From a virus (Duplodnaviria; Heunggongvirae; Uroviricota; Caudoviricetes): DNA of 4,332 nucleotides. The stretch lies in the IMG/VR virus record IMGVR_UViG_2531839675_000018, one strand, 5' to 3'. The notes beneath the pieces are model-generated. The model was not told the origin of the DNA. It saw only the letters and a program-made list of their open reading frames with translations, and did not search any database. The position numbers were made by a program, and so were the translations under genes. Shown here in pieces: positions 1 through 3,605 of the stretch. Numbering within the stretch: the stretch's first letter is position 1; each line of letters begins with the position of its first letter.

Positions 1-1
1 T

Positions 2-298
2 GTATCAAAAGCCGGTGAGCGTTATCGCCGGGCTGTGGCGCTTATTGTTCGCCAGCAGCGGCTGAAATTAAGCCTGTCCGGACGGCTGGCAATAAAAATT
101 ATTGCAGAACCACCGGATAAGCGCCGCCGTGACCTGGACAACATTCTGAAAGCACCGCTGGATGCGCTGACGCATGCGGAAGTGCTCATTGATGACGAGC
201 AGTTTGATGAAATCAATATTGTGCGCGGTCAGCCTGTGCCAGGTGGACGGCTGGGCGTGAAGATTTACGAAATCAGAGGTGGTAACGATGGCGCGTGA
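2..298 (+). CDS. rusA: Holliday junction resolvase RusA, C-terminal part (5' end lies upstream of the window)
   Basis: The reading frame is open from base 2 to the TGA at 296-298. The translation (…[30 protein letters not shown]…[11 protein letters not shown]…) aligns closely with E. coli RusA as I recall it (…[30 protein letters not shown]…GGRLELTITEM…). The ORF track starts it at an internal Met at 35, but the frame continues to the window edge. Confidence 0.88.
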
Positions 299-659
299 TA
301 TCCAGATGGTTCTTGAGCGATGGGGGGCATGGGCAGCAAATAATCATGAAGATGTAACATGGCCCTCGATAGCTGCTGGTTTTAAAGGATTAATCCCGAC
401 TAAAGTGAAATCACGTCCTAAGTGTTCTGATGATGACGCCATGATAATTTGTGGTTGTATGGCACGATTAAACAAGAATAATCAGTATTTGCACGATTTG
501 TTGGTGGATTATTACGTAGGTGGAATGACATTTATGGCTCTTGCACGTAAGCATAGATGTTCTGATGGGCTTATTGGTAAAAGGCTTTATAAAGCGGAAG
601 GTATTATTGAAGGAATGCTTATGGCTCTGAATGTCCGGTTAGATATGGATATGCGGTAG
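288..659 (+). CDS. Phage late-gene antiterminator Q (QuuD / Phage_antitermQ-like), 123 aa
   Basis: The ORF lies directly after rusA, as in DLP12 and other lambdoid prophages. The N-terminus [25 protein letters not shown] resembles QuuD-type Q proteins from memory, and the Cys-rich segment ([12 protein letters not shown]) fits the family. I prefer the ATG at 288 (GAGG at 275-278, about 8 nt upstream) to the GTG at 279 used by the ORF track. The start overlaps the rusA stop by 11 nt, suggesting translational coupling. Confidence 0.75.
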
Positions 660-750
660 GGATATATAGTGATGAGGGTTATGTTTTCTGTGTTTATAAT
701 TAACATGTTTATTTTTTGATGGTCATGTATTGTGGAAGGTAGATAAAATG

Positions 751-779
751 TTGCCTGGTGAATTGAAAATATTGATAAT
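751..779 (+). promoter_or_regulatory. Candidate sigma70 promoter (possibly the phage late promoter pR' region) upstream of the CPBP gene
   Basis: TTGCCT at 751-756, a 17-nt spacer, and GATAAT at 774-779. It sits in an AT-rich intergenic region about 90 bp after the Q stop, which is where lambdoid phages place pR'/qut. This is motif matching only. Confidence 0.3.
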
Positions 780-810
780 CAATCTTCATCATTAAATAAA
801 AGGAGTGCTT

Positions 811-1629
811 ATGTGGATTGTGTTAGTACTGTCACTGTCAACTCTCAGTTGGCATAAGGTAGTGGCTTTTTCATTGTTGACGGTGTCTGTTGTCCTGGCT
901 GTGCTTAATGATATTATTGATTGGTCGGTGTTATTTTTTGTTGCTACAATCGTTTTTTTTATTATTTTGAAGTTCAACTGGAAATATAACGCCTGGGCTA
1001 AATCTATATATGAAGTTGGCATAGTTTTATCAGCCATAGCATTATTTTTCCATCTATGGCCAGGGTTTCACAATCCTGTAGTGCTAAATTCTGTTACTGT
1101 TGGCCCTCAAAGTACTCCCTATACAATGTATTTTAATTTTGATAAAGCGCTGGTGCCATTTTTGTTAGTCCTGTGTACATCTTCTTTGTTTAAAAAAGAA
1201 GTAAAATCAGAAGTGTCTTTGTGGAAGTGGGGGGCTCTGTCGCTCTCTGTTCCTCTTATCCTGTTTTTGGCTGTTTTTTTTGGTGGATTAAAGCCAGAGA
1301 TTCATTTTCCTGAGTGGTTGCCAGAGTTTATATTGGCTAATTTGTTTTTTGTGTCTCTGGCAGAGGAATCATTATTTAGAGGGTATATTCAATCACGGCT
1401 ATCAGAAGTAACGTCTCCATTGGTTGCATTAATTGTGGCGGCTTTGTTGTTTGGTTTTTATCACTATTCAGGTGGTGCTTTACTTGTATTATTTGCCACG
1501 TTATCTGGTGTTGTGTATGGATTGTCATGGATGTGGAGTGGGCGTTTGTGGGTTGCCACCCTTTTCCATTTTGGTTTGAATCTGTGTCACTTGTTATTCT
1601 TTACCTATCCATTTTTAAAACATAATTGA
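811..1629 (+). CDS. CPBP family intramembrane metalloprotease (CAAX protease / Abi, PF02517-like), polytopic membrane protein, 272 aa
   Basis: The protein is highly hydrophobic with several predicted TM helices. It carries the three CPBP signature motifs in the canonical order: EExxxR (EESLFRGY), FxxxH (FGFYH) and HxxxN (HFGLN). AGGAG at 801-805 lies 5 nt before the ATG at 811, so I prefer this start to the track's GTG at 805, which overlaps the SD. The gene is AT-rich with ATA and CTA codons. Confidence 0.8.
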   Translation: MWIVLVLSLSTLSWHKVVAFSLLTVSVVLAVLNDIIDWSVLFFVATIVFFIILKFNWKYNAWAKSIYEVGIVLSAIALFFHLWPGFHNPVVLNSVTVGPQSTPYTMYFNFDKALVPFLLVLCTSSLFKKEVKSEVSLWKWGALSLSVPLILFLAVFFGGLKPEIHFPEWLPEFILANLFFVSLAEESLFRGYIQSRLSEVTSPLVALIVAALLFGFYHYSGGALLVLFATLSGVVYGLSWMWSGRLWVATLFHFGLNLCHLLFFTYPFLKHN

Positions 1630-1770
1630 TTTTTTCTATGGTTTTAAATTTATAAGACTGAAAAATAGCAGGACGTGACATTTGCATGAAAAATATGCAC
1701 GGCAAAGCATTTACGTACGTAAAAAATCAGGTATGCTGTTAAGAGTGGTTATTTCGCCGCATAGCTTGAC

Positions 1771-1792
1771 CCCGCCTCTGAGCGGGTTTTTT
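1771..1792 (+). terminator. Rho-independent terminator candidate
   Basis: CCCGC (1771-1775), loop CTCTGA, GCGGG (1782-1786), followed by TTTTTT (1787-1792). The middle GCGGG can alternatively pair with CCCGC at 1796-1800. The stem is short (5 bp). Confidence 0.5.
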
Positions 1793-1915
1793 GTGCCCGC
1801 AAAGTAGCGCAGTGCGTTAAATGTGCTGGTAGTTATTAATACAGGTCTTTCAGCTTGCTGGCTTTTTCGACAAGAGTTATTGGTGTGTCACGTTAACCGG
1901 AAAGGGTAAAAAGAC

Positions 1916-2155
1916 ATGCTGAAACAGCAGGATATGACAGAAACCGCCAGAGTTGTGTTTGATGAATTAAGCGTCACCGAACCGGCGACGGTCGGGGAGA
2001 TTGCGCAGAATACGTACCTTTCACGCGAGCGCTGCCAGTTAATACTGACCCAGCTGGTTATGCGGGTCTGGCAGACTATCAGTTCGGTTGTTACAGACGC
2101 CTTCAGTCCTGAAGGCTTTTTTATTTGTGGTAAATGGGCGGCTGGTGGGTGTTAG
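1916..2155 (+). CDS. Small hypothetical protein (79 aa), possible winged-helix DNA-binding protein (PapI/FaeA-like pattern)
   Basis: An SD-like AAGGG lies about 9 nt before the ATG at 1916. The segment VVFDELSVTEPATVGEIAQNTYLSRERCQLILTQLV has the helix / xxTxxEIA / recognition-helix pattern of small winged-helix regulators such as PapI or FaeA. The similarity is by eye only. It sits 94 bp upstream of, and co-oriented with, the AraC-family gene. Confidence 0.45.
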   Translation: MLKQQDMTETARVVFDELSVTEPATVGEIAQNTYLSRERCQLILTQLVMRVWQTISSVVTDAFSPEGFFICGKWAAGGC

Positions 2156-2183
2156 CGGCACCTGTCAGTCCTTTGCTTATGTG

Positions 2184-2214
2184 TTGATGATAATTTACCT
2201 TTTGGGGCTATAAT
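2184..2214 (+). promoter_or_regulatory. Candidate sigma70 promoter for the AraC-family gene
   Basis: TTGATG at 2184-2189 and a perfect TATAAT at 2209-2214. The spacer is 19 nt, which is longer than optimal. It lies in an AT-rich region 36 bp upstream of the start codon. Confidence 0.3.
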
Positions 2215-2249
2215 TGAACTAACCAATTGCTAATGAAAGTAAAATTATA

Positions 2250-2963
2250 ATGGTTGTTGTCTGTTCAGTTATCATGGTTTGCTCCCCAATTAATATTTTT
2301 CTTGAAAAGGATACGTTGTCACTTAAGCCCGGCTCAGTCGTTCTGGCCACCAAATGCATCAGGGCGCTTTTCCTTATGCATTATGGCAAAGTTAAAATTT
2401 TCGATATAAACCATTCCATAGTAAGTCAATATCTGGAAATTCAGCATAAGCTGACAAGAACTCATCTGACTGACGTTCCGCTTTATCTGTCACTGGAACC
2501 CAACAACCCTGCGTTGGCTGAGGCTTTAATTACCAGCCAGAGATTTTCCGGAGATACCACGGATATGTTTCTTATGATGGCATGCCTGTCGCTGTTTGAA
2601 TCAGATGAACGGATATTATTATTTTTAAGTGGATGTTTATCCAGTATAAGTGCCAAAGTCAGGGCGATAATTCAGACAGATATATCAGCAAGCTGGACGC
2701 TTGGTGCGATTGCGTTACGCCTGCATATGAGTGAGAGTTTGTTAAAGATAAAACTGAAAAATGAAGGGCACATGTTCAGTCGCTTGTTGCTGGAAGAGCG
2801 GATGCGTGTTGCTGTCAATATGTTATGTTCCCGGCATGGATATGGACAGGCTGTAGCAGAAAAATGCGGTTATTCAAGCTGGTCCTACTTTATTTCTGTA
2901 TTTCACCGCTATTATGGCTTCCCGCCAGACAGATATGTATCCAGGCAAGGGCTTGATTATTGA
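2250..2963 (+). CDS. AraC/XylS-family transcriptional regulator, YdeO/GadX-like (prophage-encoded Psr/PatE-type regulator candidate), 237 aa
   Basis: The C-terminal region has the AraC-type HTH (…WTLGAIALRLHMSESLLKIKLK…AEKCGYSSWSYFISVFHRYYGFPPDRY). The N-terminus MVVVCSVI… and blocks such as ISESLLKxKLK and AExCGYxSxSYFI match E. coli YdeO as I recall it. By my hand translation the gene has about 7 ATA, 3 AGA, 3 AGG and 3 CGG codons in 237 codons, and it is AT-rich. Confidence 0.85.
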   Translation: MVVVCSVIMVCSPINIFLEKDTLSLKPGSVVLATKCIRALFLMHYGKVKIFDINHSIVSQYLEIQHKLTRTHLTDVPLYLSLEPNNPALAEALITSQRFSGDTTDMFLMMACLSLFESDERILLFLSGCLSSISAKVRAIIQTDISASWTLGAIALRLHMSESLLKIKLKNEGHMFSRLLLEERMRVAVNMLCSRHGYGQAVAEKCGYSSWSYFISVFHRYYGFPPDRYVSRQGLDY

Positions 2964-2991
2964 TTTTCATCTGATTATTATTTTTTGACCC

Positions 2992-3067
2992 AGCCCTTTA
3001 GCTCAGTGGTGAGAGCGAGCGACTCATAATCGCCAGGTCGCTGGTTCAAATCCAGCAAGGGCCACCA
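2992..3067 (+). tRNA. tRNA with anticodon CAU, closest to tRNA-Ile2 (ileX-like, lysidine-dependent AUA reader); ileZ-like phage tRNA
   Basis: Hand-folded cloverleaf: D-stem GCTC/GAGC, anticodon loop CT-CAT-AA, T-arm GCTGG-TTCAAAT-CCAGC, and an encoded 3' ACCA. Overall it is close to E. coli ileX as recalled. It has A:C mismatches at positions 1:72 and 27:43. A Met identity cannot be excluded from sequence alone. Confidence 0.75.
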
Positions 3068-3074
3068 TCACATA

Positions 3075-3151
3075 CCGCCATTAGCTCATCAGGAAAGAGC
3101 GCCAGCTTTCGAAGCTGGTTGCGCGGAGTTCGGGTCCCCGAAGGCGGTCCA
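3075..3151 (+). tRNA. tRNA-Arg (anticodon UCG), atypical
   Basis: Hand-folded cloverleaf: D-stem GCTC/GAGC with GG in the D-loop, a perfect anticodon stem CCAGC/GCTGG with loop TT-TCG-AA, and an encoded CCA at 3149-3151. It is atypical: C1-G72, a mismatch at 6:67, a mismatch in the T-stem, and T-loop TTCGGGT with G where A58 is expected. It could be a functional phage tRNA or a degenerate copy. Confidence 0.55.
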
Positions 3152-3164
3152 TTATCTGTATCCT

Positions 3165-3241
3165 GCGTTGTTAGCTCAGCCGGACAGAGCAATTGCCTTC
3201 TAAGCAATCGGTCACTGGTTCGAATCCAGTACAACGCGCCA
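3165..3241 (+). tRNA. tRNA-Arg (anticodon UCU; reads AGA)
   Basis: Clean cloverleaf: acceptor GCGTTGT/ACAACGC, D-stem GCTC/GAGC, perfect anticodon stem ATTGC/GCAAT with loop CT-TCT-AA, T-arm ACTGG-TTCGAAT-CCAGT, discriminator G and an encoded CCA. Confidence 0.85.
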
Positions 3242-3255
3242 CACTTATTTTCCCT

Positions 3256-3281
3256 GGCTCGCTTTTGCGGGCCTTTTTTTT
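3256..3281 (+). terminator. Rho-independent terminator immediately downstream of the tRNA cluster
   Basis: GGCTCGC (3256-3262), loop TTTT, GCGGGCC (3267-3273) giving a 7-bp stem with one G-U pair, followed by eight T residues (3274-3281). Confidence 0.7.
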
Positions 3282-3478
3282 AAATGTCTCACAATTCAGG
3301 CGGTTGACTGTTGTCTGGTTTGCGGGGAGTTTGTTAAAAGAAACTGGCATGGTGAATCCCCCTGTGCGGAGGGGCAATCAGCGAGTAGGTATATGGGATA
3401 ATCGCGGATTCAGGTGCTGGTACTGAATTCACCGGGAGGCACCCGGCACCATGCAATGGCACATAGCGCCACTCTCCA

Positions 3479-3502
3479 GCCCCTCTCCGGAGGGGCTTTC
3501 TT
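3479..3502 (+). terminator. Hairpin with weak U-tract (terminator candidate, + strand)
   Basis: GCCCCTC (3479-3485), loop TCCG, GAGGGGC (3490-3496) form a perfect 7-bp stem, followed by TTTCTT. Confidence 0.35.
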
Positions 3503-3508
3503 ATGGAC

Positions 3509-3537
3509 AAAAAAAGCCCGCGCAGGGAGACGCGGGC
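3509..3537 (-). terminator. Rho-independent terminator on the minus strand (orphan: no convincing minus-strand gene upstream of it)
   Basis: GCCCGCG (3516-3522), loop CAGGGAGA, CGCGGGC (3531-3537) form a perfect 7-bp GC stem. On the + strand it is preceded by seven A residues (3509-3515), so on the minus strand the hairpin is followed by UUUUUUU. Confidence 0.55.
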
Positions 3538-3605
3538 GGCAAGGAATAAACAACAAAACGTGAAGTAATATTTCAGCTGGCGAATAATATCCGACAGTAA
3601 TCACT

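Follow-up and report, generated by a model that had tools for sequence, protein, structure and literature searches.

A frameshifted small winged-helix gene upstream of psrA in prophage Sp4 of Escherichia coli O157:H7, and a possible control unit for M.EcoGII-type methyltransferases

Among the described systems that come closest to the locus discussed here is the com-mom pair of phage Mu, in which the gene for a small translational activator precedes that for a toxic enzyme that modifies adenine. The activator, Com, has a Cys4 zinc finger, and com overlaps mom. The C proteins of restriction-modification (R-M) systems are Xre-type five-helix helix-turn-helix (HTH) dimers that occupy C-boxes and usually control the endonuclease gene. 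Small or related winged-helix proteins include the fimbrial co-regulators PapI and FaeA, of approximately 70–77 amino acids, the regulators of the TrmB family, which carry a C-terminal sugar-binding or effector domain, and the winged helix of DprA, which is not a classical operator binder. Two groups of prophage-encoded proteins are also of direct relevance. M.EcoGII methylates adenine non-specifically; the enzyme is reported to be silent in lysogens, and its expression is harmful (PMC5778455). Regulators of the Psr group are activators of gadE and repressors of type III secretion (PMC10877973). The gene ecs1087 was named psrA in a 2026 paper (PMC13502914), and its product is a working regulator according to both reports on the Psr proteins (PMC13502914; PMC10877973).

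The DNA that was analysed is a stretch of 4,332 nucleotides from a virus of the Caudoviricetes (IMG/VR record IMGVR_UViG_2531839675_000018), which is referred to as the window. An earlier note, made from the sequence alone, had drawn attention to an open reading frame (ORF) at 1916–2155 and proposed that it encodes a PapI/FaeA-like winged-helix protein which, for example as a co-regulator or anti-repressor, forms a two-protein regulatory module with the AraC-type regulator encoded next to it. The ORF itself is ordinary and was already annotated as frameshifted; the interesting lead is the ancestral module of winged-helix protein, leader RNA and M.EcoGII-type methyltransferase, a unit of which no description was found in Rfam or in the papers that were searched.

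Gene order in the late-regulatory region of Sp4

The window corresponds to prophage Sp4 of E. coli O157:H7 strain Sakai, with 100% identity over positions 1–3573 (the full extent of the locus compared), and covers the late-regulatory region of this lambdoid prophage. It begins with the 3' part of a RusA resolvase gene, followed by a Q antiterminator gene (279–659; PF06530, E=9e-52) and a plus-strand gene for a CPBP/Rce1-like intramembrane protease (805–1629; PF02517, E=1.4e-19; phrog_13291). The protease gene is accompanied by promoter-like sites at 720–792 and forms an insertion between the Q gene and the terminator region, at a spot where the cargo varies, with a GIY-YIG nuclease gene in phiP27 and two reverse-strand genes in Stx2a_1447. 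A tR'-like intrinsic terminator on the plus strand (1771–1792; CCCGC-CTCTGA-GCGGG followed by six T residues) is located approximately 145 nt 5' of the start of the ORF. The ORF as read (1916–2155, plus strand, 79 codons) is ECs_1086 of Sakai Sp4, annotated as 'hypothetical protein', and a literature search found no papers on ECs1086 or ECs_1086. It is followed by psrA (ecs1087, ECs_1087; 2250–2963, plus strand), the product of which matches the Pfam families HTH_18 and HTH_AraC and has YdeO and GadX as its nearest NCBIfam families, both under cut-off.

Three tRNA genes lie 3' of psrA. The one at 2992–3067 (plus strand) is tRNA-Met (anticodon CAT) according to ARAGORN and tRNA-Ile (ileZ) in the RefSeq/Sakai annotation, which is the usual ambiguity for a lysidine-modified tRNA-Ile2. 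Between the third tRNA gene and the DUF1737/SASA esterase gene, of which only the start is present at the 3' end of the window, there is a full-length match to the small RNA STnc100 (RF02076; 3318–3508, plus strand; 138 bits, E=1.7e-31), at the position that is the stx slot in Shiga-toxin phages. Overlap with another small RNA, HnrS, was considered and rejected, since HnrS is encoded in Sp9, Sp10 and Sp12 and not in Sp4 (PMC13502914). As in moron cassettes such as the psr genes (PMC13502914; PMC10877973), the cargo (CPBP protease, psrA and tRNAs) is grouped around a terminator, each element with promoter-like sites.

The frameshifted small gene and the psrA cassette

Several observations of the earlier note on the ORF were confirmed. 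It is present in the ORF listing as an ATG-started frame of 79 amino acids, is preceded by a Shine-Dalgarno-like sequence (AAGGG, 1902–1906, plus strand, read from the sequence) that lies 9 nt 5' of the ATG and is conserved in relatives, and is co-oriented with the AraC-type gene, ending 94 nt 5' of it. The length of the ORF is by itself uninformative, because the window holds many spurious ORFs of 60–117 amino acids. The gene is not intact: in comparison to a conserved family of 63–67 amino acid proteins one G is missing. Alignment with phiP27 L23 (65 amino acids) and phiSTEC1575-Stx2k places the deletion between 2062 and 2063, where ATGGCGGG has become ATGCGGG, and the extra G is the sole difference between the window and the commonest (nearest) intact haplotype among related loci. 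This puts residues 50–79 out of frame, and NCBI PGAP/RefSeq labels 1916–2112 of an identical O157 genome as 'TrmB family transcriptional regulator, frameshifted'.

The consequences for the protein are considerable. Codons 1–49 (1916–2062, plus strand) are still in frame, match phrog_331 (E=5.7e-32) and, according to the alignment and the model topology described below, encode helices H1–H3. The coding sequence of the ancestral C-terminal wing (GLADYQFGCYRRLQS and a stop codon; 2065–2112, plus strand), as delineated by the PGAP pseudogene and the alignment, is no longer read in its own frame. As the base was lost precisely where H3 ends, the product of the window does not retain the wing (b2-b3), and residues 50–63 are replaced by out-of-frame sequence. 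The winged-helix assignment thus stands for the intact family and for the N-terminal 49 residues (three helices), and fails for the window product, which lacks the wing. Whereas the ancestral protein ended in AGLADYQFGCYRRLQS, with its TGA stop codon (2110–2112) inside a terminator hairpin, the shifted frame crosses the T-run at 2117–2122 (translated as FFI), continues into a conserved RNA hairpin, of which it reads the 5' strand (CGKWAAGGC), and reaches a TAG stop codon at 2153–2155 in the hairpin loop. The C-terminus that had been noted as unusual is indeed odd (FFICGKWAAGGC), and it is explained as a translated terminator T-run and RNA hairpin. Any product of the ORF would keep H1–H3, lose the beta-hairpin wing and gain 30 residues encoded by terminator and leader; judged from the sequence, it is most likely non-functional. 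Rescue by programmed frameshifting or transcriptional slippage was rejected: although the frame would be restored by a -1 slip at ATG, reading of the sequence shows no slippery heptamer or long homopolymer at this position.

The frequency of the two alleles was determined with short queries. The 40-mer with the deletion occurs exactly in 347 and near-exactly in 358 of 5426 complete E. coli genomes, always as a single copy, and the carriers are mainly O157:H7 and one O55:H7 among the matches listed; with a longer query, the deletion allele was also detected in at least one O103 genome. The intact 41-mer occurs exactly in 1150 and near-exactly in 1324 E. coli genomes, in up to 4 copies per genome, and the exact 79 and 65 amino acid proteins are each encoded on at least 1000 contigs. 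Because the identity of the deletion allele in hundreds of genomes reflects clonal descent, it does not constitute evidence about selection in either direction. One may envisage that the frameshifted allele is a functional new variant, e.g. a dominant-negative or altered-specificity form of the intact copies elsewhere in the genome. This would agree with its stable inheritance in O157:H7, O55:H7 and some O103 genomes, with the intact start codon and Shine-Dalgarno sequence, and with the presence of intact paralogues in O157 strains as well. It is nevertheless very unlikely, since a tail encoded by a terminator and a leader hairpin has not been shaped as protein, the wing strands belong to the fold in the model, and independent frameshifted or fused variants elsewhere in the family (P0006, P0055, P0084, P0093 and P0110) point to the random decay that is expected for prophage genes. 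Action in trans by the intact copies that further prophages of this strain carry is conceivable.

The origin of the present gene order became clear from another prophage of the same O157 strain (L203; NZ_AP018488.1, 2013785–2020825), in which the small ORF, a 149-nt leader, the methyltransferase gene, the tRNAs and the esterase gene are all intact; this prophage has a DUF1133-family gene in place of a Q-family gene. Homology of the window to the L203 module extends from 1784 to 2186 and resumes at 2993. In between, an 806-bp psrA cassette (2187–2992, plus strand) occupies the slot of the 3' half of the leader and the M.EcoGII-type methyltransferase gene, which it replaced in Sakai Sp4. Of all sites in the window, the one that comes closest to a sigma-70 promoter (ATGATA-16-TATAAT, 10 of 12 positions; 2187–2214, plus strand) lies at the left edge of the cassette and, being a consensus match only, is probably the promoter of psrA. 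The same psr junction is present at 1291 places in 714 E. coli genomes and also in phage phiSTEC1575-Stx2k, and that all these places have a single junction in common indicates one replacement event with later spread. Most of the psr-linked copies have no frameshift (1291 junction places vs 358 deletion places), and in one locus (L079) the small ORF is intact although PsrA is identical. It follows that the frameshift arose after the replacement and is specific to the Sp4 lineage. By the same token, decay of the small gene is not a necessary outcome of methyltransferase loss, and the idea that this loss caused it was discarded.

These results bear directly on the proposed pairing of the small protein with PsrA. 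That the 79 amino acid protein is an intact winged-helix co-regulator or anti-repressor, co-transcribed with psrA as a functional pair, might be concluded from the adjacency and common orientation of the genes, which are 94 nt apart, from the recurrence of the same junction at so many places, and from the retained N-terminal HTH. The frame is broken with loss of the wing, while PsrA is reported to be a working regulator, and the two genes became neighbours when one cassette was replaced. Of the 115 sampled loci, only 4 have a Psr-type AraC gene 3' of the small gene, and two of these represent the same O157 locus. The small gene does not co-occur with an AraC-type gene across lineages; across genera, its partner is a methyltransferase gene (101 of 115 loci, and 75 of 75 in the reverse test described below). 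Furthermore, a conserved terminator-like element (2099–2122) and the promoter-like site at 2187–2214, both consensus matches only, separate the ORF from psrA. This makes a functional pair extremely unlikely, and from distribution and anatomy we infer that the ORF does not encode a partner of PsrA. Very probably, what is left of the small gene is a pseudogene, and psrA forms a separate cassette that brings a promoter-like site of its own and is set off from the ORF by a conserved terminator.

The intact winged-helix family, its partner gene and the leader

The intact small protein has 334 homologues, typically of 63–65 amino acids, in Escherichia, Salmonella, Klebsiella, Citrobacter and related genera, with divergent forms of 65–67 amino acids in Proteus, Providencia, Mangrovibacter, Mixta and Plesiomonas. 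It is a narrow family (83 clusters at 50% identity among 1.84 billion proteins) that matches phrog_331, for which the function is unknown. Pairwise comparison of 12 genus-level sequences gave a median dN/dS of 0.086 in the annotated frame, as compared to 1.3 and 2.1 in the other two frames, and this low in-frame value identifies the intact ORF as a real protein-coding gene. The structure prediction suggested in the earlier note supports its fold assignment for the intact protein: the AlphaFold2 model obtained with a diverse alignment, which was used since a shallow alignment gave a poor model, has a pLDDT of 92.9 and the topology H1-b1-H2-H3-b2-b3, with wing strands at 52–55 and 58–61, and resembles solved winged-helix HTH domains, the closest folds being MarR, ArsR and BlaI-type repressors. 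The Pfam matches across 40 members are all to winged-helix/HTH families, except two marginal ones that concern a single member each, and the best is the winged helix of DprA (DprA_WH; 25 of 40 members, best E=1.3e-8). A BFVD fold search returned generic winged-helix proteins only, giving no functional lead, and a profile search against PDB sequences gave weak matches only, the best (E=0.019) being to the N-terminal region of the methyltransferases DSYB and MTHB.

The TrmB label of the database annotation is not borne out by the family models. Sub-threshold or weak matches to TrmB (PF01978) were found in 24 of 40 members; the intact 65 amino acid E. coli protein scores 18.0 bits against a gathering score of 25.6, and the 79 amino acid form gave no TrmB match in the Pfam search. 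None of the Pfam matches of the E. coli proteins examined reaches its gathering score. With its single domain of 63–67 residues the protein also has no room for an effector domain, and it differs from TrmB, MarR and ArsR regulators in being a bare acidic domain without a dimerisation or ligand domain. The likeness to PapI/FaeA that had been proposed goes no further than that all are small single-domain winged-helix proteins: PF04703 gave no match at E≤10, nor in the 40 members at E≤0.05, where HMMER filters may hide very weak matches, and instead of a fimbrial operon with Lrp/Dam phase control the context is a lambdoid late region, between Q and tRNA genes. Within helix H3, residues R39, Q40, T44 and Q45 are invariant or nearly so, and the H3 motif RCQLILTQL is invariant in the family. 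Only two cysteines (C39 and C58) are conserved. The net charge is acidic to neutral, with a family median of -1 and a value of -5 in Proteus, and the acidity is also marked in Providencia.

The genomic partner of the family was established from 114 loci that were collected with the small protein as seed, from IMG/VR contigs and from a single genome of each species. In 101 of 115 loci, the gene that comes first on the downstream side encodes a beta-class DNA methyltransferase (approximately 350 amino acids, DPPY motif), and in the reverse test, which covered the methyltransferase-seeded loci with enough upstream sequence, the small ORF was present 140–160 nt upstream in all 75. Among 27 loci that were chosen as representatives and range from E. 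coli to Plesiomonas, the distance between the stop codon of the small gene and the ATG of the methyltransferase gene is 149–152 nt in 26, and in the single exception the methyltransferase start is disrupted. In the E. coli loci the enzyme is 87–95% identical to the published M.EcoGII sequence, and the prophage methyltransferases M.EcoGI and M.EcoGII (PMC5778455) belong to the same family as this ancestral partner, which is absent from the window. Since psrA replaces the methyltransferase gene, the window does not show a small ORF some 150 nt 5' of a DPPY methyltransferase and contains a remnant of the module only. The intact small ORF also persists in loci that have no methyltransferase gene. 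The word 'upstream' does not occur in the main text of PMC5778455, which thus apparently does not discuss an upstream gene or leader, and a limited literature search that combined EcoGII with antiterminator and late promoter found nothing on either.

The 150-nt spacer between the two genes is more conserved than the genes that flank it and displays compensatory changes, for example GGCTGGTGGGTG...CACCCGGCCAGCC as compared to GACTGTAAAAGTG...CACCTTTACAGTC in Proteus. A structure of six helices accounts for these patterns: in 46 distinct sequences, 92% of the cells are paired, against at most 49% with the partners slid, although the paired fraction is inflated because the structure was derived from the same sequences. 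Stronger evidence comes from the double changes, with both sides changed in 16 leader pairs as compared to 5–9 with slid partners and in 0 of 500 shuffles (same 46 sequences). Helix 1 is the intrinsic terminator at the end of the small gene, T0 (GCCTTCAG-TC-CTGAAGGC followed by six T residues; 2099–2122, plus strand, with the hairpin at 2099–2116), which overlaps the ancestral stop codon and shows compensatory changes in 4 of its 6 pairs across genera. The 3' strand of the leader (helix 4) pairs with the 12 nt directly 5' of the methyltransferase AUG, before which no Shine-Dalgarno sequence is apparent. Together, T0 and the upstream terminator make two tandem terminators ahead of the methyltransferase gene.

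In the window, only T0 and the 5' half of the leader are left (2085–2192, plus strand). With covariance model R1 this remnant scores 71 bits (positions 1–98, 77 deleted), whereas complete elements score 128–196 bits. It includes the leader hairpin P2/P3 (2134–2180, plus strand; ATGGGC GGCTGGTGGGTG ... CACCTGTCAGTC ... GCTTAT), with the TAG stop codon of the ORF in its loop. Leaders of approximately 150 nt are located at L002:2893–3042, L013:4193–4342, L203:3572–3720 and in about 100 other loci, the counterpart in the window being the remnant at 2123–2186. Rfam 15 gave no match under the ORF or the intact leader, even at permissive E-values. A leader peptide starting at the invariant ATG of AATGGGCG (MGGWWVL and stop in many genera) was considered and rejected, as neither its length (4 to more than 40 codons) nor its sequence is conserved and it has no Shine-Dalgarno sequence.

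On the upstream side of the small gene, 106 of 118 related loci have a hairpin with T-run 40–260 nt before the ORF, in most cases near -145, and its stems differ and compensate. The small gene starts approximately 215 nt after Q wherever Q is adjacent. The upstream terminator and the spacing to Q therefore place the small gene at the head of the Q-dependent late region, with an inferred promoter assignment. The arrangement resembles lambda PR'-tR' (6S RNA) and the short late transcripts of the StxS type in having a terminator after the Q gene region; in the window, the promoter is assigned from position and conservation only. Between the terminator and the ATG the only block that is conserved from E. 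coli to Proteus and Plesiomonas is CTTGCTG-N10/11-CAGAGTTAT, present in the window as CTTGCTG-N10-CAAGAGTTAT (1854–1880, plus strand; from the alignment). It has a promoter-like spacing and a poor sigma-70 match, was not flagged in the promoter scan, and could be a weak promoter or a protein-binding site. A hairpin within this block (CTTGCTG...CAGAG) was rejected, the pairing register being inconsistent between genera.

The earlier note had also suggested the dyads at 1683–1723 as a DNA target of the small protein. Phages in which the small protein is essentially identical have different dyads, which are therefore unlikely to be its binding site; it is more likely that they belong to a promoter region specific to the type of Q. 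The palindromes in the window, TGCATGAAAAATATGCA (1683–1699) and TTTACGTACGTAAA (1711–1724), lie just 5' of a -10-like TATGCT (1733–1738), and related phages have other palindromes at the same position (GCGTACGC, GCGGTCCGC and GGAATTCC). Their variability suggests elements that are specific to the antiterminator or promoter type.

Possible roles of the intact unit

In intact lambdoid prophages of the Enterobacterales, the small gene is thus positioned approximately 145 nt 3' of the tR'-like terminator, heading the late region governed by Q. It ends in its own terminator hairpin, followed by the constant spacer of about 150 nt and the M.EcoGII-type methyltransferase gene, and the spacer is a structured RNA leader of which the 3' strand pairs with the 12 nt before the AUG. 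In Sakai Sp4, the 806-bp psrA cassette, with a probable promoter of its own, took the slot of the 3' leader half and the methyltransferase gene, after which the 1-nt deletion shifted the frame of the small gene after codon 49.

What the intact protein does may be approached from its relation to the leader. The reciprocal linkage of the genes, the constant spacing, the invariant H3 and the invariant leader segments suggest a protein that acts together with the leader. The intact family may thus control expression of the toxic methyltransferase via the leader in the manner of Mu com-mom, by activation or by repression, a role that we put forward tentatively as the likeliest of those considered. 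As in Mu, a protein of approximately 62–67 amino acids is encoded directly 5' of a toxic DNA adenine-modification gene, the translation start of the enzyme lies within RNA secondary structure, and expression would be confined to late lytic growth. Unlike Com, the protein is a winged helix with two conserved cysteines, a leader of 150 nt precedes the enzyme gene and the small gene has its own terminator, while RNA binding is putative. Membership of the Com family by sequence was rejected, given the winged-helix fold and the presence of only two conserved cysteines (C39 and C58). Control via the leader is at odds with the acidic to neutral charge, which is atypical for nucleic acid binders, and with the retention of an intact ORF where the methyltransferase has been lost.

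Alternatively, the intact protein could be a sequence-specific DNA-binding transcription factor, comparable to the C protein of an R-M system or to a moron regulator that is expressed in the lysogen, the candidate targets being the block that is conserved 5' of the gene or palindromic DNA within the leader. The similarity of the fold to MarR, ArsR and BlaI-type repressors, the near invariance of R39, Q40, T44 and Q45 in H3, the conserved block 5' of the gene and the moron-like layout with its own terminator all fit a DNA binder. With R-M C proteins it shares a small HTH protein linked to a DNA methyltransferase and a presumed role in the timing of expression; it is unlike them in being a winged helix, in lacking an endonuclease, and in that no C-box was identified. 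The acidic to neutral proteins and the poor sigma-70 match of the upstream block argue against this explanation, and the combination of covarying hairpin arms with an invariant H3 fits an RNA helix better than a base-specific operator, so that a DNA-binding role is somewhat doubtful. The charge, above all in Proteus and Providencia, would be more easily understood if the protein were an accessory that binds other proteins, modulating the methyltransferase or countering host defences against m6A-rich DNA, and not a gene regulator. Tight reciprocal linkage to an anti-restriction-type methyltransferase and the DprA winged helix as the best Pfam match point in the same direction, but conservation of the leader RNA and the constant spacing would be left unexplained, and we regard such an accessory function as unlikely. 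If control through the leader is considered further, the intact small genes and the 150-nt leader may perhaps form a previously undescribed control unit for phage methyltransferases of the M.EcoGII family. Its layers would be the two tandem terminators, the leader that sequesters the translation start, and a small winged-helix protein dedicated to this control, with either the leader or the enzyme as its target.

For E. coli O157:H7, the practical consequence is that ECs1086 should be treated as a pseudogene and that models of PsrA action can do without a partner encoded in cis. The possible wider relevance lies in the intact unit. M.EcoGII is a widely used non-specific m6A methyltransferase, and a limited literature search found no account of its control by the phage; the invariant small gene, the second terminator and the leader that pairs with the start region provide testable handles on this control. 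If true, the control unit would explain how a toxic enzyme is kept silent in lysogens and switched on late in lytic growth. In Shiga-toxin phages, the unit sits just 5' of the tRNA and stx genes, and its leader is a candidate for a new family of cis-regulatory RNAs in prophages of the Enterobacterales, including these Shiga-toxin phages.
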